From: a virus
Lineage: Duplodnaviria > Caudoviricetes
Virus record (IMG/VR): IMGVR_UViG_3300037400_001617
Strand: one strand, 5' to 3'
DNA length: 64,000 nucleotides
The notes beneath the pieces are model-generated. The model did no database searches, was not told where the DNA came from, and worked only from the letters and a program-made list of their open reading frames with translations. The translations under genes and the position numbers were made by a program. This document shows, in pieces, positions 1 through 56,457 of the stretch; the stretch's first letter is position 1, and every line of letters starts with the position of its first letter.

Positions 1-2105
1 GCAGTCTTACCGAGTTTGTCTGCAGCAAGTTTAACCTTGTTAGACAGACTACTCTCGTTAAGAGCTTCTGTTCTACTGATGTCGAGAAGTTCAAGTACAT
101 CCTGTACAGTCTCCTGGACATAGTGTGTATACTCATTAGTAGAGATGATATCAAGATCTGGAATAGAGTCATCTTCCTCCTGTTCCTTAAGAGCAGCGAT
201 ATCTGCAAGTGCCAGATTGATAGGATCTATCTTAGCATACTTACCATATCCATTCTCAGAACGGAGACGATGTCTCTCATATTCAAGTATAGAAGCATAC
301 TCCTTCACATCAAAGATGTCTCTGTTGAGAATGACAGCTTCTGTAAGTACAGGAATGCAGTCTGCAGTGACATAGTTGATGGAACGTCTTATAGTATTCA
401 TGAGTTCGTTCTTATCCCAGTTCATAGACTCTACTAAGACAGAAGTATCGTCCAGATACTTATACATCTCATCCCATGAACCGAAGTCAAAGTCATCATC
501 TGATGAAGAAGAGTCTTTGTTTCTCTTCTCATAACGCTCTTCTCTCTTCTTTTCGACCTCTTCATCTGTATAGAGAGTATCTTCTCTAGCTTCAAGTTTA
601 TCTCTATCAGCTTCGAGTTTCTTAATGTACTCCTTATAGCGCTGTTTAGACTTTTCATCTTTAGTTTTATTGAGTTTGTCTTTATAGCGAGAGATCTCTT
701 TGTCGTAAGCATCAACAACTTCTTTCATCTGCTTACGAGAGATATCCATCTTAAGGAAAGCACCAGTGATCAGACCGAAGATACCGAGGAATGGTGAAAA
801 GGCAAACATGCCGATGACTGCTGCTCCTCTTACTACAGCGAAGATATCAGGAAGTTCCTTGACGATATTCTCTGGTGAGTTACAGAAGACTCTATGGAGA
901 CACTTCTTCAGAGTCTGAATAGATTTGTTGTGAGACATCTTAAAGGCGTTAAGATCACCCTTGATTGTATTCTTCTTATCACCATTCAACTTCACCTTAG
1001 TTACAGTAGGCTTAATCTTCTTACCATTCTCATCCTTTCTTATAAGCTCCTTGTGCTTATCTGAATGAAACTCAAGGATAGTATCGATAGCCTCTTCTGT
1101 AGTAGTGATTGACTCATAATCTTCATCGAAGATATAAGCTATGGGAGCGAAGTCATCGTCATCGTAGAACTTAGAATTCTCTACAACGTACTTCATATCA
1201 TGAATGAGATCATCCATAGAGAACTCTTCCGAGTCTTGGTTGTTGAGCAAGAAGTAATCAGTAACAGCCTCGGCAATGAAGCTGTTCTCAAGAGGTATAC
1301 AGTTCTTGTTCATAAGATACATGATATTCTCAAGTGCAATACCATACTTAGCACCGACAGCGATATCATATGAATCTATAAGTGAACACAGCTCAAAGAT
1401 GCAGTCTCTATAAGAACCATCTTCTCTACGACATTCTCTGACAATCTTATCAAGATTGAATCTCTTTGAGAGTTTATCATGGTTATCTATGACACGATCA
1501 CATTGCTGATTCTTTTGAACACACTCGATCATTCTATTATAGCACTCTTCAACCATTTTCTCCTTAGGAGTCTTCTCTTCCTGTCCTTCTTCTCCTTCTG
1601 GAGTATTCTTCTTGACAGCTTCATCCTTACGCTGATTGAACATGTCATACTTATACTTACGGTTAGGGTGAAGAGTATTAACGTGGTGACCCTTATTCTC
1701 AAGGTCACGGGTAGTTACAGTAGCATTAGCATGTGTCTGCTTTTCGATCTTAGTGTTTGCTATCTTATGCTTACCCATCTTGTAGTTGTTAAGATGACGA
1801 AGAGCTTTACCGTCACGAACCTTGTGAAGTATTTTGCCTTCTATAAGTTCTGAAGCATTCTTGATGTGGGAAGGCGAGTCATTGTCGCATATCAGCTGGA
1901 ATAGTTCAAGAACTTCCTGAAAAGCAACAGATTCATCTCTAGATAGTCCTCTCCAGTTCTCAAGGACTATCTTAGCATTGTTGTAAGAGTATTGACTCTT
2001 AACGTGTCTGAACAGGGTCTTGATGTTCACGCTAGCGGGAGTCTCCGAGATGATACGGAGATTGTTACTACGCTCTTTGATATCCCTGGCAGTAAGTTTA
2101 GGCAT
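1..2105 (-). CDS. Large hypothetical protein, probable virion/internal head protein; runs off the window edge
   Basis: Open frame from ATG 2105 (MPKLTARDIKERSNNL...) to the window edge, absent from the ORF track because it has no stop in the window. SD AAGGAGG and late promoter upstream. Hydrophobic segment GAAVIGMFAFSPFLGIFGLITGAFL followed by a K/E-rich coiled coil. Confidence 0.75.
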   Translation of the reverse strand, partial: MPKLTARDIKERSNNLRIISETPASVNIKTLFRHVKSQYSYNNAKIVLENWRGLSRDESVAFQEVLELFQLICDNDSPSHIKNASELIEGKILHKVRDGKALRHLNNYKMGKHKIANTKIEKQTHANATVTTRDLENKGHHVNTLHPNRKYKYDMFNQRKDEAVKKNTPEGEEGQEEKTPKEKMVEECYNRMIECVQKNQQCDRVIDNHDKLSKRFNLDKIVRECRREDGSYRDCIFELCSLIDSYDIAVGAKYGIALENIMYLMNKNCIPLENSFIAEAVTDYFLLNNQDSEEFSMDDLIHDMKYVVENSKFYDDDDFAPIAYIFDEDYESITTTEEAIDTILEFHSDKHKELIRKDENGKKIKPTVTKVKLNGDKKNTIKGDLNAFKMSHNKSIQTLKKCLHRVFCNSPENIVKELPDIFAVVRGAAVIGMFAFSPFLGIFGLITGAFLKMDISRKQMKEVVDAYDKEISRYKDKLNKTKDEKSKQRYKEYIKKLEADRDKLEAREDTLYTDEEVEKKREERYEKRNKDSSSSDDDFDFGSWDEMYKYLDDTSVLVESMNWDKNELMNTIRRSINYVTADCIPVLTEAVILNRDIFDVKEYASILEYERHRLRSENGYGKYAKIDPINLALADIAALKEQEEDDSIPDLDIISTNEYTHYVQETVQDVLELLDISRTEALNESSLSNKVKLAADKLGKT

Positions 2106-2175: not shown

Positions 2176-2206
2176 GTAAAGGTGAGAAAGTAGAGTTGTA
2201 TACTAT
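2176..2206 (+). promoter_or_regulatory. Early-type bipartite promoter GTAAAGGT-N14-GTATACTAT
   Basis: Same two boxes and 14-nt spacing recur at 42112-42142 and 51992-52022. Confidence 0.65.
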
Positions 2207-2248
2207 TGTAGTGTAGGAATACAAAATCTCTTCCATCTTGAAAGGAGA

Positions 2249-2602
2249 ATGGATATGTTAAACACAAATATCATAAACACTTTCGCCGACTCAGCAAACC
2301 CAGAGATTGCAGATAAGCTTAGCGAAGTGCTGAAGAAGCATCTTACTAAGATAAACGATCTCACAACTGAAGCTATGAAAGCTTCATTAGACGAACCAGA
2401 TCCTGAGAAGTCTCTCAAGACCCTCCAGCTTAAGAAGAAAGACGCAAATAAAGAAATCATAAACCTCTACAATCTTCTCATCGATCTTTACAAGAGTGAT
2501 AAGTTTATAGCTTCAGCAGGAGCTGATAAATGTAAAGAAAGAATAGAGTACTTTGAGGAAAGCATCAGAAGAATGAATGAAGAAATAGAGGGAACCCACT
2601 AA
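2249..2602 (+). CDS. Hypothetical early helical protein (start may be ATG 2255)
   Basis: 117-aa ORF with SD AAAGGAG, its own promoter and a terminator. Confidence 0.75.
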   Translation: MDMLNTNIINTFADSANPEIADKLSEVLKKHLTKINDLTTEAMKASLDEPDPEKSLKTLQLKKKDANKEIINLYNLLIDLYKSDKFIASAGADKCKERIEYFEESIRRMNEEIEGTH

Positions 2603-41473: not shown

Positions 41474-41498
41474 GGGTGAGTGGAAGAACCACTCACCC
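41474..41498. terminator. Hairpin between convergent genes
   Basis: GGGTGAGTGG/CCACTCACCC. Confidence 0.7.
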
Positions 41499-41513: not shown

Positions 41514-41858
41514 TTAGTCCCAGCCGTAGCGATGTGCTCTACGGCGGTCTGCTTCAGCTCTTCTGCGCTGCTTATCGCTAGCGCAAGTCCTTACTAATCT
41601 GTAAGGGTAGGTGTTTGTTGGAGTCTGTACTACTACATAGTAGTACTCTTCATTTACCATTCTTACCCCGCCAGGAATATTTTCCTTAACTTCATCAGGA
41701 AGGTCTGCTCCAGACACTATAGTTAATTCAGAAATAGGCTCTTCGCCTGTAAATTCTGTCTCGTGTCTGAGGGTTCTTCCGAACCTTCTTGCCTCTTCAT
41801 CGGAGATAACTGCCTCTCTCCAGTCTGTGGTTGTAATGTAGTTAATATGATTAATCAT
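41514..41858 (-). CDS. Hypothetical 114-aa protein with Arg-rich C-terminus
   Basis: Start MINHINY after SD AAAGGAG; ends KQRRRAEADRRRAHRYGWD. Confidence 0.7.
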   Translation of the reverse strand: MINHINYITTTDWREAVISDEEARRFGRTLRHETEFTGEEPISELTIVSGADLPDEVKENIPGGVRMVNEEYYYVVVQTPTNTYPYRLVRTCASDKQRRRAEADRRRAHRYGWD

Positions 41859-41879
41859 ATGAACTCTCCTTTCATATAA

Positions 41880-42105
41880 AATGATGGTGGAGACTCCTGA
41901 CAGTCTCCACCGCTTTTCAACTAGACTCCTAACGTACCACCTATTAATCAGGATCATAGGTAGTAGGCTTTGCTCATTAGGAGTACCCATAGCGCTCGAC
42001 TAATAGCTCTTTCTGAGAGCCACTCGAACTATTAGCCGCTCGCACTCTAAATGTGATACAATCATTCGCTCAACTCTTAGAACAGAGAGAACTTAATCTT
42101 CTCAC
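41880..42105 (-). ncRNA. Highly structured leader or ncRNA
   Basis: Four stems of 10-12 bp; four positions pair only as G.U on the minus strand. Confidence 0.6.
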
Positions 42106-42111
42106 ACTATT

Positions 42112-42142
42112 ATAGTATACAGTTGTTTATGATTACTTTTAC
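42112..42142 (-). promoter_or_regulatory. Early-type bipartite promoter GTAAAAGT-N14-GTATACTAT
   Basis: Same architecture at 2176-2206 and 51992-52022. Confidence 0.7.
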
Positions 42143-42204: not shown

Positions 42205-43014
42205 ATGCCGCAAGATCTCTTTCGCAACTCTCAGATCTGTTCAATGGTAGCAGAGGGTGAGGTTGCCAATATCTTATCACATTTCGATTCTGATTATGTG
42301 ATGTCTGTAATTCACGATCACTTGGTTAATAGGTTCACCTACTCCAGTGCTGTGATGACTAAGCCAAACATAGTTGTATCATACAATATGACCTTCAGAA
42401 ACCTTGAGCAGATGTATCCTCTCGATGCACAGAACATTCGTGAGGTTGAGCAGGCATCGTATCAGGAGATCATAGATACAATCTGTCAATTCTATGGATT
42501 CCAGTTTGTTCCTCCAGCAGAGGACACTGATCTATTCACTATAGCACTCTATATGTATGAGTGCTTTGTATCAAAGTTCGACGCTTTCGTTTCTCAGTTC
42601 TATGCAAACTTTATCATGCTGAATAAGGATGCTCTTTGGGATGCACTTGAACTGGTGAACTACAAGAAAGATAAAGACGTTACTACAGTATACGGTAAGA
42701 AAGCATATGATGACATTAAGATGGCTATCATTTGTGCGAAGATGAATGAAGTCCTTTATTACCTTAAGGGTCTTGACATTGATCTCCCCACATATCTTCA
42801 GACATGCTATCCTATAGAGTATGCAAATCTCTTAGCAGATCATGTAAAGGGAGAGAACTTCTACGCAACGTTTATAGCAACTGCTATAGATGTACCTTCG
42901 GTAGTGACAGACATCAAACTCAAGATACACAATACATTGTGTACACAGAATGATATCTCTGTACTCATTCCTCAGCCAGAAGAGAATGGAGATACTACAA
43001 GTGAGGAGGAATAA
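42205..43014 (+). CDS. Hypothetical protein
   Basis: 269 aa; SD AAAGGAG; promoter AACG-ATACAG-TAA at 42168-42180. Confidence 0.75.
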   Translation: MPQDLFRNSQICSMVAEGEVANILSHFDSDYVMSVIHDHLVNRFTYSSAVMTKPNIVVSYNMTFRNLEQMYPLDAQNIREVEQASYQEIIDTICQFYGFQFVPPAEDTDLFTIALYMYECFVSKFDAFVSQFYANFIMLNKDALWDALELVNYKKDKDVTTVYGKKAYDDIKMAIICAKMNEVLYYLKGLDIDLPTYLQTCYPIEYANLLADHVKGENFYATFIATAIDVPSVVTDIKLKIHNTLCTQNDISVLIPQPEENGDTTSEEE

Positions 43015-48606: not shown

Positions 48607-50973
48607 TTAGTAGTCATAGTAGAAGTCGTCTTCATCATCGTCATCCACACTACTGTATGGATCATTCATATCCTTATAGAACTGGTCTATAGTACCAAGC
48701 ATACAGTACTGGTTTGCAGGATCCTCCAACTCTTCTATAGGTTTGTTGAACTTCTGGCTGTATGCCTTTCTACCTACTGGAGTAGAGAGAATCTTCTGAA
48801 GAGCCTCTTGGTCTTCTTGTCTCTGCTGTTCCAACCAGTCCTTGTAGAGCATGCTACCGTCATCCAGATCCTTAAGCTGCTGCTCTACTCTACCATGCAT
48901 ACCCTCAAGGTCGCCAGAGATATTGATTCCCTCTGTAGCCTCGAAGCTCTGGAAGATAGGCTCTTCAGCTTCATGCTGTTCAGTCTGGAGGTTAGGTATT
49001 CTTATACCCCAGTTCTCTGTAACGTTCTTACCATAGTACAGAGGATAGAGTGAAAGGAGATAAGAGAATACAGCATCATCGTGGCTCTGAGCAGAGTGGT
49101 CGATTCTACCAGTCTTCTTAACCTCAAGGTTCTTCAGCTCTTCATATATGATAGGAGATACGAACTTGTCCTTATGGTCTTCCATTCTAAGCATAAGAAG
49201 GTCCATAAGCTGTTCTCTAACTATCTTAGTGTTGTCGAGTCCATAGACTCTAGTGAGCTGTTTCTTACGATTGATATGGACTCCGTCATACTTCTCCTCT
49301 ATAGTCCTCTCCTTAATCTCATAGTAGAGATTAGACTTGATCTTAGACTTGAGAAGCTTTGCCAATACGCCTGTACCTACACCATTACGCTCTACTACTA
49401 CCAATGCATTTGGTGTCCAGTTGCTTACTACATCATAGATTACCCTAGCAAAGTCAATAGTAGATATGTAGTTACAGTTAAAGTCTGCCATAAGCTTAGA
49501 CGTTGTGGAATCTGTTATACTCATAGCGGATGAGTCTTTGTTATAGCCAGCGGCAACGTCACAGCCAATGATAGGAGCAATACCTGGTCTGAGCTCTTCA
49601 TATACATTGAGAAGAAATGCTCCGACATAGACTTGCTTCTTAGGTTGTCTAACGAATCTGCCAACAATATCAAGCTGTTCTTTTGTGAATGGTGAGTTCT
49701 CTGCAGACATAGCCCACTCAAGAAGGAACTCTCGACGGATGTCTGTCCACTTGTACTCTTGTTCACGGCAACGCTCTTTGAACCACTCTTCTGAATAGCC
49801 AAGCTGTTGATAAGTAGTCTTGATATGTACGAAGATACTCTTCTCGTTGGAGTTGAGTATATTGGTGAGCTCTTGGAGTGAAAGATCATACCAGAGTTCT
49901 GAGAATGGAGTCATGTTGCTTCTCATATCATACATATACTTACCGAACTCATCAGAGATGAATCCAGGTGTAGATGTAAGACAAAGTCCATGAGGAGCTC
50001 CATTGTCTTGACAGTTTCTGAAAGCTCTAGTCATGGCAGGCATTGCATTAGACAACGACTCTCCAAGGAATGGGAAGAACGCAGACTCGTCGAGCCAACA
50101 GTTAGTGATAGTACGACCTCTGAGGAGGGAGATAGCAGCAGTCTTAGAGGTTGCTCTAGCGAGTGCTTCTATCTTGTTGAAGTTGATTGGGTGCTGTACA
50201 TAAGATACAGTATTACGAGCCTTAAGCTTCTTACCGTTCTGACCAAATGCTTGGTCGAATCTAAGGTAAGATGGCAGAGCCTGTATAATCTTCTTCATAT
50301 CGTCAAGGTTTCTCTTAGCATCGTCCAGCTTCTTATTGAGGAAGACCATGTTAGCGTTTCGAGAACCGAAGTTGTATACCCATGAATACCATACTTCACA
50401 TCCTACTGTTTTACCAGTCTGACGAGGCTGCTCATGGTATACATTAAGAGACAATGTAAAGCAGAAGTTAAGAGCTAGGTTTCCTCTGTCAAGTTTGTAC
50501 CTGACGTAAGGTCCACCCTGGCTCTGTACTCTAACAACTTCTCTGATGTAGTAGAAGAAGTTACGTTGACACTCTATAAAGATCTTTTGCTTCATGAACA
50601 GAGGAAGCTTAGGATCATAGGGATCTACATTAGCGAGATCCTTATCAAAGAGTATAAGGAAGAACTTGTTGTTCTTGATTCCTATAGCTTTCAGATAGTA
50701 GTGCATATCCAGAAAGCTTTGGTTCTTAGTATTCATCTGAAAGTAGACAGTAGACCTTTGTCCCGTAAGAGGATCAGTCATCACGTTCTTATTCTGACTT
50801 GGTGGGACAAATGGCATTGTCTTCTTAGGTTTCATTTGTGAAGGATCAATATATTGGTTAGTCTGAACAGTTCCATCGTAAAAGATCTCTGATTCGTTAG
50901 AGCCAGTATATGTGCGGTCTTCTTTAGCGACATCAGTATCTTCGTCAAAAATCACTTCAATAGTACTTGCCAT
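48607..50973 (-). CDS. Terminase large subunit
   Basis: Walker A PRQTGKT, Walker B WLDE, TSTP, nuclease GCDVAAG, ERN, HDDAVFS. Start MASTIEV lies downstream of promoter AACA-TCTCCG-TAA (51021-51033). Confidence 0.92.
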   Translation of the reverse strand: MASTIEVIFDEDTDVAKEDRTYTGSNESEIFYDGTVQTNQYIDPSQMKPKKTMPFVPPSQNKNVMTDPLTGQRSTVYFQMNTKNQSFLDMHYYLKAIGIKNNKFFLILFDKDLANVDPYDPKLPLFMKQKIFIECQRNFFYYIREVVRVQSQGGPYVRYKLDRGNLALNFCFTLSLNVYHEQPRQTGKTVGCEVWYSWVYNFGSRNANMVFLNKKLDDAKRNLDDMKKIIQALPSYLRFDQAFGQNGKKLKARNTVSYVQHPINFNKIEALARATSKTAAISLLRGRTITNCWLDESAFFPFLGESLSNAMPAMTRAFRNCQDNGAPHGLCLTSTPGFISDEFGKYMYDMRSNMTPFSELWYDLSLQELTNILNSNEKSIFVHIKTTYQQLGYSEEWFKERCREQEYKWTDIRREFLLEWAMSAENSPFTKEQLDIVGRFVRQPKKQVYVGAFLLNVYEELRPGIAPIIGCDVAAGYNKDSSAMSITDSTTSKLMADFNCNYISTIDFARVIYDVVSNWTPNALVVVERNGVGTGVLAKLLKSKIKSNLYYEIKERTIEEKYDGVHINRKKQLTRVYGLDNTKIVREQLMDLLMLRMEDHKDKFVSPIIYEELKNLEVKKTGRIDHSAQSHDDAVFSYLLSLYPLYYGKNVTENWGIRIPNLQTEQHEAEEPIFQSFEATEGINISGDLEGMHGRVEQQLKDLDDGSMLYKDWLEQQRQEDQEALQKILSTPVGRKAYSQKFNKPIEELEDPANQYCMLGTIDQFYKDMNDPYSSVDDDDEDDFYYDY

Positions 50974-51040
50974 AATAACACCTCTTTCTGTAGTTGATAC
51001 AGTGGGCTCAATAGCCCTCTTTACGGAGATGTTCGACAAG

Positions 51041-51198: not shown

Positions 51199-51804
51199 TT
51201 AGTCCTCTACTTCAGTTCCAGGGAGTCTTCCCTGGAAGAAGGAGAACTTATTTGCATCGAGACACCCGTAAAAATTACAGGAGTCTCCGTTATAGTTGAA
51301 GCATGCAATATTCCAGTACTTATCTGTGAGATGAGTAATGGATACTAAAAGAAGGCACGCAGCCTTCTTCATGATAAGCGGAATTGATTTCCACCATACA
51401 TTTACAATCTCATCCTCAAAGATTACTTCTGCCAGAGGTATCTCCTTAATGAAATTGTCCTTGGTGTTCTTCTCGATGGCCTGTACGCAAAGACCAAGGT
51501 CTGTCGAAAATCTTTTTGAAGTTACCACCGCTAAGGAGTTAATCACTCCATACGGATCCCCGTCTCTTATTGCGTCTATTAAAGTATCGATGCTTTTCGT
51601 AAAACTTACCCTGTTAAGGCACGAATCCTCAACAGGCTGTCCTGTTCCAGTTATATAATATTCCCCTGTTTCATGGTCGAACTTTGTTACAAGTTCGAAA
51701 AGAATAGACTTGATCTGTGCATTTGTGAATGTCTCTGCTGGCATTACTTTTGCGATCTCGTTTACTGCTGTAGCCTCATTAGCCTTCTTTGTGTTGTTTC
51801 TCAT
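51199..51804 (-). CDS. Hypothetical 201-aa protein lacking an SD
   Basis: Protein-like ORF between an early promoter and a terminator. Confidence 0.7.
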   Translation of the reverse strand: MRNNTKKANEATAVNEIAKVMPAETFTNAQIKSILFELVTKFDHETGEYYITGTGQPVEDSCLNRVSFTKSIDTLIDAIRDGDPYGVINSLAVVTSKRFSTDLGLCVQAIEKNTKDNFIKEIPLAEVIFEDEIVNVWWKSIPLIMKKAACLLLVSITHLTDKYWNIACFNYNGDSCNFYGCLDANKFSFFQGRLPGTEVED

Positions 51805-51809
51805 AATTC

Positions 51810-51985
51810 AAGCTCAGTAGGTGCTACACCTTTGACAGAGGTCAAGCTGAGCATAATGTAGTTTCCTTTGGAAACGCCCATTCATAGGGGCACACCCTTT
51901 TTCATGAATGCAGGGATCCTGCTTCTCCATGCAGGATCATAGAATTTTTGCATCCATGGTATGGAGTTAATCAATTCTCTCATAC
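51810..51985 (-). ncRNA. Structured leader or ncRNA
   Basis: Nested stems CAUGGAUGCA/UGCAUUCAUG and GAUCCUGC/GCAGGAUC; hairpins UGCCC/GGGCG and GUUUCC/GGAAAC; three-way junction closed by GCUCAG/CUGAGC. Confidence 0.55.
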
Positions 51986-51991
51986 ACCTCA

Positions 51992-52022
51992 ATGATATAC
52001 AACCATCTTAGCTAACTTTTAC
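51992..52022 (-). promoter_or_regulatory. Early-type bipartite promoter GTAAAAGT-N14-GTATATCAT
   Basis: Third copy of this architecture. Confidence 0.7.
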
Positions 52023-53999: not shown

Positions 54000-54701
54000 A
54001 TGACAATGGACAACAAAGCTCACCAGCAGAAGATTACAAACATGGTCATTGATGCTAAGTGTATTCTTGACTATGACCTCACGATCATGAAGATCTTCCA
54101 GTTCAACTACAACCATCCAGACTATGTGGATCAGGAAGTTATGCATTATTCTCTTGGACAGCTTAAGAACGCTCTTGTAAAGCGCAAGGATGCTAATCCT
54201 CTGACTATATGTATCCCTGAGACAGCTATGGATAGAGCAAACATTGAACAGATTCTTGAAGACATCTATAAGAACAATGAGTATGATATCTTCAAGTATA
54301 TCACTGTTACTGGAACTAGTAAGCTCATCTACATGATGCAGAATCATAGTTCTTTCGATGTAACTGTGGTGTGTAAAGATGAAACCGAGAAGGGTCTTAT
54401 AGAAGGACGTACCAAGTCTTTCAAGACTGTAATCGGATACGACTCTATCGATCCCAAAAACTTCAATGGATTCATGTTCAAGGATATCAGAGATGTCTTT
54501 GCTCTCCCATATAAACTTGAGAAGAAGACTCTCTTCTTCCAGAACTATGAATTCAATATCACTCGTGATACTGATGGAACACCGTTTCCCAATGCAGAGT
54601 ATGCGGTAGCATTAATGCGAGAAGGAAACTACCCAATACTTGTAGAAGTGTATGATCATACTACACTCGAATCTCTTTCTAAACAGCAAACAAGTCAATA
54701 A
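54000..54701 (+). CDS. Hypothetical protein
   Basis: 233 aa; SD AAGGAGG. Confidence 0.72.
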   Translation: MTMDNKAHQQKITNMVIDAKCILDYDLTIMKIFQFNYNHPDYVDQEVMHYSLGQLKNALVKRKDANPLTICIPETAMDRANIEQILEDIYKNNEYDIFKYITVTGTSKLIYMMQNHSSFDVTVVCKDETEKGLIEGRTKSFKTVIGYDSIDPKNFNGFMFKDIRDVFALPYKLEKKTLFFQNYEFNITRDTDGTPFPNAEYAVALMREGNYPILVEVYDHTTLESLSKQQTSQ

Positions 54702-54723
54702 TCAATCAAAAGGAGGAAATGCT

Positions 54724-56457
54724 ATGATAAGCAGCAATATAGTTGAAAAGGATACTCTTAGAAGAGTTCAGCTCGAAACACTTGAAGCTCTTCACAGATA
54801 CCTTTCACAGTCATTCGGACCATACGGTTCAAACACCATCCAGTATAAGAAAGAGGGTTATCCTCGTTACACTAAGGACGGTCACACAATTCTTAAGTCA
54901 ATCATGTTCTGCGGCGAGATCGAGCAGGCAGTACTTGCAGACATCGAAGAAGAGACAAGAGCACAGGCTAAGAGAGTCGGTGACTCTACAACCTCTGTTA
55001 CTATTCTCTCATATCTTATATTCAAGAAGCTTACTGAGAGAATCGAAAGTCAGTTCACAAAGACACCTCCTGCAGACATTGTAAGAGCTCTCAAGGAAGT
55101 TGTAGATGCAGCATCTACAATCATCAAGGCTCACGGCAGAGAAGTTACTCTTGACGATATCCGTAAGATCTCACTCATCTCTACAAACAATGACGAGAAG
55201 CTTGCAGAAGAGATCGTTAACGTTCATAAGGATCTCGGTCTTAACGCATACATCGACGTTATGGCTGGTTCTGGAGAAGAGTTCGTTCGTAAGACATACG
55301 ACGGCATGTTCTTCGACTGTGGTTACCACGATGCATGTTTCATCAACATGCCTGAAAAGTCTGTAAACAGACTTGAGAATCCTCGTATCTACTACTTCGA
55401 AGATCCTATTGACACTGTAAACTACGGCGAGCTGTTCGATACAATCATTGCTCACAACATCATCAATCCGATCAATGAGATGAACAGCAATCGTCCTAAC
55501 AACAATGAGATTCCTCAGATCATTCCTACAGTCATCATAGCTCCTAAGATCGTAAGAGACTATGCTCGTACTCTCGAGGTTGTAATGAACTACTGTGCTA
55601 AGTTCACTCAGGCTAATCTCCCTAACACTATCCCGCTCAACATCATCACTGGTGTTACGGATACTGATAAGGTGTACCTGAAGAACATACTCAATCTCTG
55701 CGGAGTTCCTACTATCAACAAGTATGACGACGCTAAGGCTGAAGCAAGAGACCAGAAAAACGGCACTGCTCCTTCAATCAAGAATGTATGGGAGTGGTAC
55801 GGTACTGCAGGTTGCGTAGAGTCTGGTGCATTCTCTACAAAGCTTATCGATCCTAAGAACTACAAGAATGAAGATGGTACATATACAGACGTCTTCAATG
55901 CAGTTCTGAATGATCTCGATGCTCGTATCGCTGAGCTTGAAAAGCAGCACAACGAAACTCTCAAGATCTACCAGTACAAGAAGCAGAAAAACTCACTTCT
56001 CGGTAACATGGTAGAACTCTATGTAGGCGGTATCACTATCGCTGACAGAGATCAGGTAAGAGACCTTGTTGAAGATGCTGTTCTCAACTGTCGTTCAGCA
56101 GTAAATGAAGGCGTTGGCTACGGTGCTAACTTCGAAGGACTCAGAGCATTCAAGGCTCTCATGGATGTATCACTCGGCGATGGCTCTCTCAAGGAAGAAA
56201 TCGTTAAGTGCTTCTATGAAGCATACAAAGAAATCTCTGAGCTTCTCTACAGATATATGGATGATCCTGAGGGTAAGGTTGCACTTTCTCTCGCACAGGA
56301 TTGTCCGTTCGATGTAAGAACTGGTGAGAAGGGTGAGAACGTTCTCTCCTCTATCGATACTGATATTTGTGTACTCAACAGTATCTCAAAGATCATCTCA
56401 CTGATGGTTACTGCTAACCAGTTCCAGATGTCTAATCTCAATATCAACAAGTATTGA
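54724..56457 (+). CDS. Phage GroEL-like chaperonin
   Basis: SFGPYGSN, TKDGHTILKSI, VGDSTTS, DGMFFDCGY, ELYVGG, VEDAVLNCRSAVNEG. Confidence 0.9.
   Translation: MISSNIVEKDTLRRVQLETLEALHRYLSQSFGPYGSNTIQYKKEGYPRYTKDGHTILKSIMFCGEIEQAVLADIEEETRAQAKRVGDSTTSVTILSYLIFKKLTERIESQFTKTPPADIVRALKEVVDAASTIIKAHGREVTLDDIRKISLISTNNDEKLAEEIVNVHKDLGLNAYIDVMAGSGEEFVRKTYDGMFFDCGYHDACFINMPEKSVNRLENPRIYYFEDPIDTVNYGELFDTIIAHNIINPINEMNSNRPNNNEIPQIIPTVIIAPKIVRDYARTLEVVMNYCAKFTQANLPNTIPLNIITGVTDTDKVYLKNILNLCGVPTINKYDDAKAEARDQKNGTAPSIKNVWEWYGTAGCVESGAFSTKLIDPKNYKNEDGTYTDVFNAVLNDLDARIAELEKQHNETLKIYQYKKQKNSLLGNMVELYVGGITIADRDQVRDLVEDAVLNCRSAVNEGVGYGANFEGLRAFKALMDVSLGDGSLKEEIVKCFYEAYKEISELLYRYMDDPEGKVALSLAQDCPFDVRTGEKGENVLSSIDTDICVLNSISKIISLMVTANQFQMSNLNINKY

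Follow-up and report, generated by a model that had tools for sequence, protein, structure and literature searches.

RNA1, a structured RNA with an exchangeable gene slot behind it in a clade of uncultured AR9/phiKZ-type jumbo phages

On its minus strand, a 64,000-nucleotide stretch of viral DNA (IMG/VR record IMGVR_UViG_3300037400_001617, here called the window) carries a cassette in which a bipartite promoter-like motif is followed by about 230 nt of hairpins, a GC-rich hairpin with AUCAUUUUA, a Shine-Dalgarno (SD) sequence and an ORF of 114 codons. The cassette lies between a divergent 269-aa gene, which starts at 42205, and the convergent gene of a 260-aa virion protein. This layout raises the question whether the hairpins form a leader that governs the gene behind them or an RNA with an existence of its own. 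Structured RNAs described from jumbo phages are, to our knowledge, very few, and a defined function has been assigned to none of them. We report here that the segment is very probably a real structured RNA of four hairpin domains (P1 to P4) and about 230 nt, termed RNA1, whose structure has been kept by evolution. It represents a new RNA family, without a match in Rfam. At the sequence level this apparently non-coding segment has putative boundaries of its own, consisting of a conserved bipartite promoter-like motif on one side and a covarying terminator-like hairpin on the other. From a putative start at G42105 to a putative end near 41878, RNA1 would measure about 228 nt.

The elements of the cassette, in the order of the minus strand, are the following (the arms of hairpins are separated by a slash):

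42135..42142, minus strand: upstream promoter element GTAAAAGT, invariant in all homologues; the 13-nt spacer that follows varies
42112..42121, minus strand: proximal promoter box TGTATACTAT, a conserved box
42050..42108, minus strand: P1, a three-part 5' hairpin domain (RNAalifold helices 1 to 4, 98-100% paired)
41992..42043, minus strand: P2, a long hairpin, GGCUAAUAGUUC/GAGCUAUUAGUC (helices 5 and 6)
41926..41983, minus strand: P3, a two-tier hairpin, ACUCCUAAUG/CGUUAGGAGU around UACUACCUAU/AUAGGUGGUA (helices 7 and 8)
41974-41966, minus strand: conserved internal loop of P3, (G)AGCAAAGCC(U)
41955-41945, minus strand: apical loop of P3, GAUCCUGAUUA
41912..41925, minus strand: conserved single-stranded linker UCUAGUUGAAAAGC, of which AAAAGCG is invariant in nine sequences
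41886..41911, minus strand: P4, a terminator-like hairpin with a 10-bp stem, GGUGGAGACU/AGUCUCCACC (terminator scan)
41876..41885, minus strand: tail AUCAUUUUAU, with a U-tract 4 nt from the P4 stem (sequence and terminator scan)
41864..41873, minus strand: Shine-Dalgarno region GAAAGGAGAG, read from the sequence
41514..41858, minus strand: 114-aa accessory ORF with a conserved Arg-rich C-terminal helix, from a family of 5 clusters that all belong to this clade
41474..41498, no strand assigned: bidirectional terminator closing the cassette, common to it and the convergent 260-aa gene (terminator scan)

Fold, covariation and distribution of RNA1

The minus strand of the segment has a minimum free energy of -93.9 kcal/mol, compared with -66.0 +/- 4.8 kcal/mol in 200 dinucleotide shuffles, none of which folded as well (z = -5.85), and the plus strand one of -61.3 kcal/mol (z = -2.5). 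The 269-aa protein of the neighbouring gene and the 114-aa protein served to gather homologues, giving an alignment (A2) of nine distinct full-length sequences of 76-91% identity from related phage contigs of about 230 kb. RNAalifold predicted on A2 65 pairs arranged in the four domains, and when these were counted over the nine sequences 98.5% of cells were paired. Changes on both sides of a pair, preserving the pairing, were found at 17 pairs, as compared to 6.2 +/- 1.6 in shuffles (0 of 500 reached 17) and to 1-5 in controls with slid partners. In the consensus structure, 8 pairs of the window are G.U, against 9-13 in the homologues, which identifies the minus strand as the sense strand. 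A preliminary description of the locus had proposed selection on RNA structure from four such pairs; that count was too low, and its reasoning on the RNA-sense strand holds, as do the improvement of the fold over dinucleotide shuffles that it had called for and the selection itself, now seen in the homologue alignment. The four sets of stems that it had named are likewise all present in place on the minus strand, P1 being absent from its list. Compared with the homologue L005, RNA1 is 88% identical, whereas the four-fold degenerate sites of the adjacent gene are 47% identical and saturated, indicating a constraint on RNA1 that reaches beyond its helices.

The domains differ in how they vary. 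P1 shows one-sided changes only, and the two pairs at its outer end may precede the start site. P2, its apical helix included, comprises 19 pairs with compensatory changes in 10 of them; its base, GCGAGCG/CGAGCGC with a tandem A.G/G.A, is invariant and its apical region GAGUGGCUCUC is conserved. P3 likewise has 19 pairs (99-100% paired, compensatory changes in 4), with for instance CUCC/GGAG replaced by CCGC/GCGG in L014. In P4, three pairs show compensatory changes, GGUGG/CCACC becoming GACGG/CCGUC in L001; the stem thus covaries, whereas the loop GUCAGG (41901-41896) and the U-tract are invariant. P4 is followed directly by AUCAUUUUA, then by the SD GAAAGGAG and by the AUG at 41858. The tail is kept in every homologue, whether or not an ORF follows, and the U-tract would mark the 3' end of a short RNA. 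Since this tract is short (4-6 U) and lies 4 nt off the stem, P4 may however terminate poorly, in which case the RNA would mostly be a 5'UTR.

The loops of P3 and P4 are invariant while their stems vary, and the two loops are complementary to each other over 6 bp (UCCUGA in the P3 apical loop with UCAGG[A/G] in the P4 loop) in 9 of 9 sequences, a U.G pair being replaced by C-G in L014. This complementarity probably corresponds to a kissing contact, for which no compensatory change is seen because both loops are invariant. By analogy, a pairing of the CUAUGRUCCYG motif with the P4 loop in RNA1 would be backed by the local AUCCYG/CRGGAU hairpin present in other leaders of these phages, described below. 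When the conserved loops were searched for antisense targets in the window and in G001, a complete relative of 232 kb (IMGVR_UViG_3300028887_000070, assembled from 12 stretches), only the opposite strand of their own locus and chance matches with 1 mismatch were recovered.

No known family accounts for this RNA. Rfam 15, searched at gathering thresholds over the whole window, returned none, the sub-threshold matches for the RNA1 region were at chance level (best E of about 1 or worse) and the expanded variant of L006, described below, did not match an Rfam family either; the earlier statement that no known riboswitch class is recognisable here therefore agrees with the search. A covariance model (R1) built from A2 detected exactly one copy of RNA1 in each of two complete IMG/VR genomes of about 230 kb, and no paralogue beyond one locus per genome in the window and two complete relatives. 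The RNA1 region has no blastn match among INPHARED phages. The loose pattern TCGAGCGC..ATCCTGA..GTCAGG was also scanned over IMG/VR and JGI metagenomes; the covariance model matched 0 of the 95 new loci so obtained, and the hits displayed were chance ones, bar two loci already known. Within the material searched, RNA1 thus appears to be restricted to a single clade of uncultured jumbo phages.

The phage that carries RNA1 is an AR9/phiKZ-type jumbo phage, and its clade is uncultured, with genomes of about 230 kb. This assignment follows from the terminase, which is 35% identical to those of the Bacillus jumbo phages PBS1, AR9 and Goe21 (the PBS1/AR9 phages being the nearest cultured relatives by this protein), together with the multisubunit RNA polymerase genes, two beta-like and one beta'-like, that a Pfam search found in the close relatives G001 and G002. 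The large terminase gene lies at 48607-51039 (minus strand) of the window and a Cpn60/GroEL-like chaperonin gene at 54652-56457 (plus strand; Pfam E 6e-19). The neighbouring ORFs of 914 and 910 aa, sought as RNA polymerase subunits, gave no match to phages by tblastn. Sample names suggest ruminant gut metagenomes as the source of the clade.

The gene slot and the shuffling of the cassette

The ORF behind RNA1 starts 27 nt from the P4 stem, which leaves no room for a promoter of its own, and GAAAGGAGA also precedes the ORF in other variants. Members of the 114-aa family, 64-82% identical in amino acids to the window's protein, stand behind RNA1 in 7 of 10 distinct variants. The slot is filled by an unrelated 158-aa ORF in L001; in L002 it holds no ORF and the P4 terminator leads directly into the second terminator; and in L006 an expanded RNA of about 440 nt, with P2 to P4 kept (112.9 bits), likewise has no ORF behind it. 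The complete genome G001 lacks a 114-aa homologue altogether (best tblastn E 0.55), while the 269-aa and 260-aa proteins, used as controls, match there with E below 1e-170. RNA1 is thus kept independently of the 114-aa gene and the slot is swappable, which tells against a cognate RNA-protein pair and equally against a gene-specific riboswitch. The association in 7 of 10 variants may nevertheless reflect some functional link between RNA1 and the 114-aa family, and the variants without an ORF could be recent deletions, although L006 is substantially diverged. The preliminary description had pictured a leader of about 230 nt before an early gene: a terminator-like hairpin does precede the SD, but the tie to the 114-aa gene is loose.

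The 114-aa ORF and its Arg-rich C-terminus, from which the same description had proposed a cognate RNA-binding protein, are real, and within the protein family conservation is highest in the Arg-rich tail. That proposal does not fit a gene missing in 3 of 10 RNA1 variants and from G001. The protein has no Pfam or PHROG match and no usable match in the Atlas by features, and its AlphaFold2 model is of low confidence (pLDDT 66.5), with nothing below E = 1 in a Foldseek search of the PDB. Two longer gene calls were rejected, namely the 158-aa version of the window's ORF (upstream extension 41859-41990, minus strand) and the 147-aa JGI call P0008, both of which run over-extended through P3 and P4. 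In homologues there are 1-nt indels that break the frame, and L001 has lost the upstream ATG; the extension is therefore not coding, and RNA1 thereby corrects both calls. An upstream ORF was also considered, as AUGAAAGGAGAGUUCAUAUGA overlaps the start codon, and dismissed as its AUG is not conserved in other variants.

The RNA1 locus is a shuffling hotspot. The flanks and the cassette have different histories: relative to the window, the four-fold sites of the 269-aa gene are 0.92 and 0.89 identical in L014 and L023, whereas RNA1 is 0.77 and 0.86 identical, and such a near-identical flank beside a more diverged cassette indicates that the RNA1 cassette has been exchanged by recombination. In the L023-L030 variants (1024-1446, minus strand) an extra 111-aa ORF with a duplicated promoter copy lies between the divergent gene and RNA1, and in L006 (1866-2300, minus strand) there is an inserted 51-aa ORF, 88% identical to part of the 111-aa ORF, again with a duplicated promoter. 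By analogy, the insertions in L006 and L023 look like cassette insertions of the PeSL type known from T4-like phages. In L009, a more distant relative whose neighbouring protein is 63% identical, the slot (2177-2500, minus strand) lacks both an ORF and RNA1; it contains only a TGTATACTAT box followed by two small hairpins and by a terminator, and is either an 'empty' cassette or the site of a different short RNA. Other small ORFs occupy the same slot in the more distant relatives L010-L013.

A promoter subclass and the leaders it precedes

The full motif upstream of RNA1 reads GTAAAAGT-N13-TGTATAYYAT-(6N)-G, and in L023 conservation starts exactly at GTAAAAGT. Its proximal part, TGTATAYYAT-(6N)-G, is present at all cassettes and resembles, without being identical to, the AAATATATATTAT-(6N)-G of AR9, in which AAATATATATTAT-(6N)-G+1 is the consensus of early promoters (PMC5312081). 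Transcription would accordingly be expected to start at G42105, 6 nt downstream of TGTATACTAT, and a scan for sigma70-type promoters found nothing at the 5' end of RNA1. The 'early' timing that the preliminary description ascribed to the gene is plausible, purely by analogy with the AR9 promoter, given the AR9-like box and the multisubunit RNA polymerase genes of the relatives.

Strict sites of the proximal box number 13 in G001, versus 2.8 in shuffles. Exact copies of GTAAAAGT-N13-TGTATA are rarer: two in the window (42142 and 52022) and five in G001, in both cases all on the minus strand. The subclass as such amounts to 5-6 copies per genome, duplicated copies of which flank inserted ORFs. 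Each exact motif lies upstream of a structured leader that carries CUAUGRUCCYG. The five leaders of G001 all contain CUAUG and an AUCCYG/CRGGAU hairpin; in those other than RNA1 (one termed RNA2 and three paralogous ones termed RNA3), AUCCYG and CRGGAU form a local stem around a purine-rich loop, and this stem covaries between paralogues.

The window's second exact promoter belongs to a second cassette, with a leader at 51805-52022 and an ORF at 51199-51804 (both minus strand). This leader of about 215 nt is structured (z -2.8) and carries CUAUGAUCCUG; the R1 model did not detect it as an RNA1 homologue. In the G001 counterpart the leader is about 85% identical in nucleotides and the 201-aa ORF only 27.6% identical in protein, so that the second cassette is a conserved leader with a hypervariable ORF. 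The three RNA3 leaders, of about 115 nt, follow the G001 minus-strand promoters at 129280, 168731 and 178161 with a different ORF behind each, and have in common AGUGAGUCAAGG...CUUGAC as well as a module of CUAUG plus a hairpin whose loop is purine-rich. Two further sites carry imperfect promoters. At 127913 (minus strand) of G001, a variant with 2 mismatches precedes a leader with a terminator-like hairpin (ACCCA..UGGGU) and a U-tract directly before a 394-aa ORF, a second leader-terminator-ORF layout in that genome. At 2176-2202 (plus strand) of the window, a one-mismatch copy, GTAAAGGT-N13-TGTATACTAT, is followed by a short leader and then by a 117-aa orphan ORF (2249-2602).

Possible roles of RNA1 and comparison with known systems

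The reading that we consider reasonably probable is that of an early, terminator-capped RNA which is independent of the gene behind it and whose read-through expresses a swappable accessory ORF. RNA1 would be transcribed from the rare GTAAAAGT-N13-TGTATAYYAT-(6N)-G subclass of the phage's early-type promoters and fold into P1 to P4, the last resembling an intrinsic terminator. The P4 loop probably kisses the P3 apical loop, which would make the terminated RNA a compact unit. Most transcripts would stop at P4 and yield a stable small RNA, on which proteins would be likely to bind at the conserved loops, and the fraction reading through would express the accessory ORF between P4 and the cassette's second terminator. 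RNA1 would in this way be a hybrid between a 5'UTR-derived sRNA and a leader.

The main competing idea, that of a signal-responsive attenuator (a riboswitch, or a leader controlled by a protein or a tRNA) in which P1 to P3 would sense the signal, set termination at P4 and so control the ORF, was also that of the preliminary description, which had seen in the two copies of AGGAGUCU the basis of a terminator/antiterminator switch. The layout is the classic Firmicute one of leader, terminator, SD and ORF with no separate promoter; P4 and AUCAUUUUA do provide a terminator hairpin and U-tract between leader and ORF; conserved unpaired nucleotides are found at the apex of P2, in the internal loop of P3 and along the linker; and the G001 transcript from 127913, whose promoter is 2 positions off the motif, also has a terminator-like hairpin before its ORF. 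The repeat, however, is duplicated in the window's variant alone and in 0 of 8 other homologues, most of which carry AGGAGACU within P3 and GGGUUCU within P4. RNAalifold run on the alignment truncated before the P4 3' arm found no conserved partner for the P4 5' arm, and hence no conserved antiterminator. The candidate partners inspected by eye, namely CUCUCU (P1) and CUCUC (P2 loop), have disappeared from L017, L018, L023 or L014, with P4 unchanged. The invariance of the terminator loop is unusual for an expression platform, Rfam offers no match, and the downstream gene is not constant, the slot being taken by the 114-aa family, by an unrelated 158-aa ORF or by no ORF at all. We therefore regard attenuation as rather unlikely; what stands of the proposed new cis-regulatory RNA is the new RNA, not a gene-specific riboswitch, given that the downstream gene is exchangeable.

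RNA1 might alternatively act purely in cis, as the leader module of the GTAAAAGT promoter subclass, either stabilising the 5' end of the mRNA or modifying the polymerase in the manner of put or nut sites. The hairpin with a covarying stem shared by all five exact-motif leaders of G001 speaks for such a module, as does the second cassette (52022-51805), where the leader is so much better conserved than its ORF. Yet the other leaders are far smaller than RNA1 and escape its covariance model, we know of no factor for such a role, and a leader with nothing downstream would be expected to decay, while RNA1 is kept in L002 and L006; on balance a role confined to cis is distinctly unlikely. That the Arg-rich 114-aa protein binds RNA1, as an autoregulator or in a ribonucleoprotein, is very unlikely: the two adjoin in 7 of 10 variants and the protein's most conserved part is its Arg-rich C-terminal helix, but in variants where the gene is missing or another stands in its place RNA1 remains whole and continues to covary, the complete G001 has no homologue, and no RNA-binding fold or family can be recognised in the protein. 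Least of all do we believe in a DNA-level element devoid of RNA function (a recombination cassette, an origin or protein-binding palindromes). Promoter copies flank the inserted ORFs in L006 and L023, like PeSL in T4-like phages (PMC2839356), and the cassette is mosaic relative to its flanks; a DNA element would nevertheless explain neither the strand asymmetry (8-13 G.U pairs that are A.C mismatches on the other strand, z -5.9 vs -2.5) nor the preservation of pairing by compensatory changes, in a context of promoter, terminator and SD.

Several known systems share parts of this organisation. In the giant phage 201phi2-1, ONT-cappable-seq attributed 8 of 11 sRNAs to premature termination in 5'UTRs (PMC11512511). 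These 5'UTR-derived sRNAs and those of phiKZ also belong to jumbo phages with multisubunit RNA polymerases of their own, and like the predicted RNA1 transcript they are shorter than 250 nt, bounded by a promoter and a terminator, located upstream of a protein gene and conserved among relatives (PMC11512511). RNA1, in contrast, bears no sequence or Rfam relationship to them and is known from sequence alone, and the gene downstream is a conserved tail gene there and an exchangeable orphan here; covariation support is much stronger for RNA1 than in the four-phage alignment of PMC11512511. The PeSL cassettes of T4-like phages (PMC2839356, PMC4122927) similarly combine a repeated early promoter and a hairpin by variable orphan ORFs, with ORF gain and loss accompanied by duplicated promoter copies (as in L006 and L023) and a cassette that is mosaic compared to its flanks. 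They are, however, DNA motifs of about 100 bp with sigma70-like promoters and simple GC stem-loops, whereas RNA1 is a single-copy element of 230 nt with four domains, conserved loops, extensive covariation and a promoter that is not sigma70-like. Firmicute riboswitches and attenuators resemble RNA1 in the structured leader, the terminator with U-tract, the SD and ORF that follow and the conserved unpaired nucleotides, and differ from it in that RNA1 has no conserved antiterminator, constant downstream gene or Rfam match and has an invariant terminator loop. The lambda nut/N and HK022 put systems, finally, share with RNA1 promoter-proximal hairpins on early transcripts, terminators downstream and a small Arg-rich protein encoded nearby, but show no sequence similarity to it; the Arg-rich protein is moreover dispensable for the maintenance of RNA1, and the polymerase is probably the phage's own.

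RNA1 has covariation at a level normally needed to define an RNA family, clear boundaries and conserved loops that suggest a partner. A more speculative and, in our estimate, unlikely proposal is that it is the trans-acting hub of a small early regulon defined by GTAAAAGT-N13-TGTATA promoters and CUAUGRUCCYG leaders. As an abundant decoy or sponge, it would titrate an RNA-binding factor of the phage or the host, or else a defence sensor, by which the other leaders would be recognised as well. If true, jumbo phages would have in RNA1 a new class of regulatory or counter-defence RNA, behind which accessory ORFs evolve fast. Between genomes, the RNA1 and RNA2 loci both combine a conserved leader with an ORF that has either been exchanged or diverged strongly, as arms-race genes typically do. 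RNA1 thus offers a testable entry to early gene control and RNA biology in AR9/phiKZ-type phages, probably of the ruminant gut.
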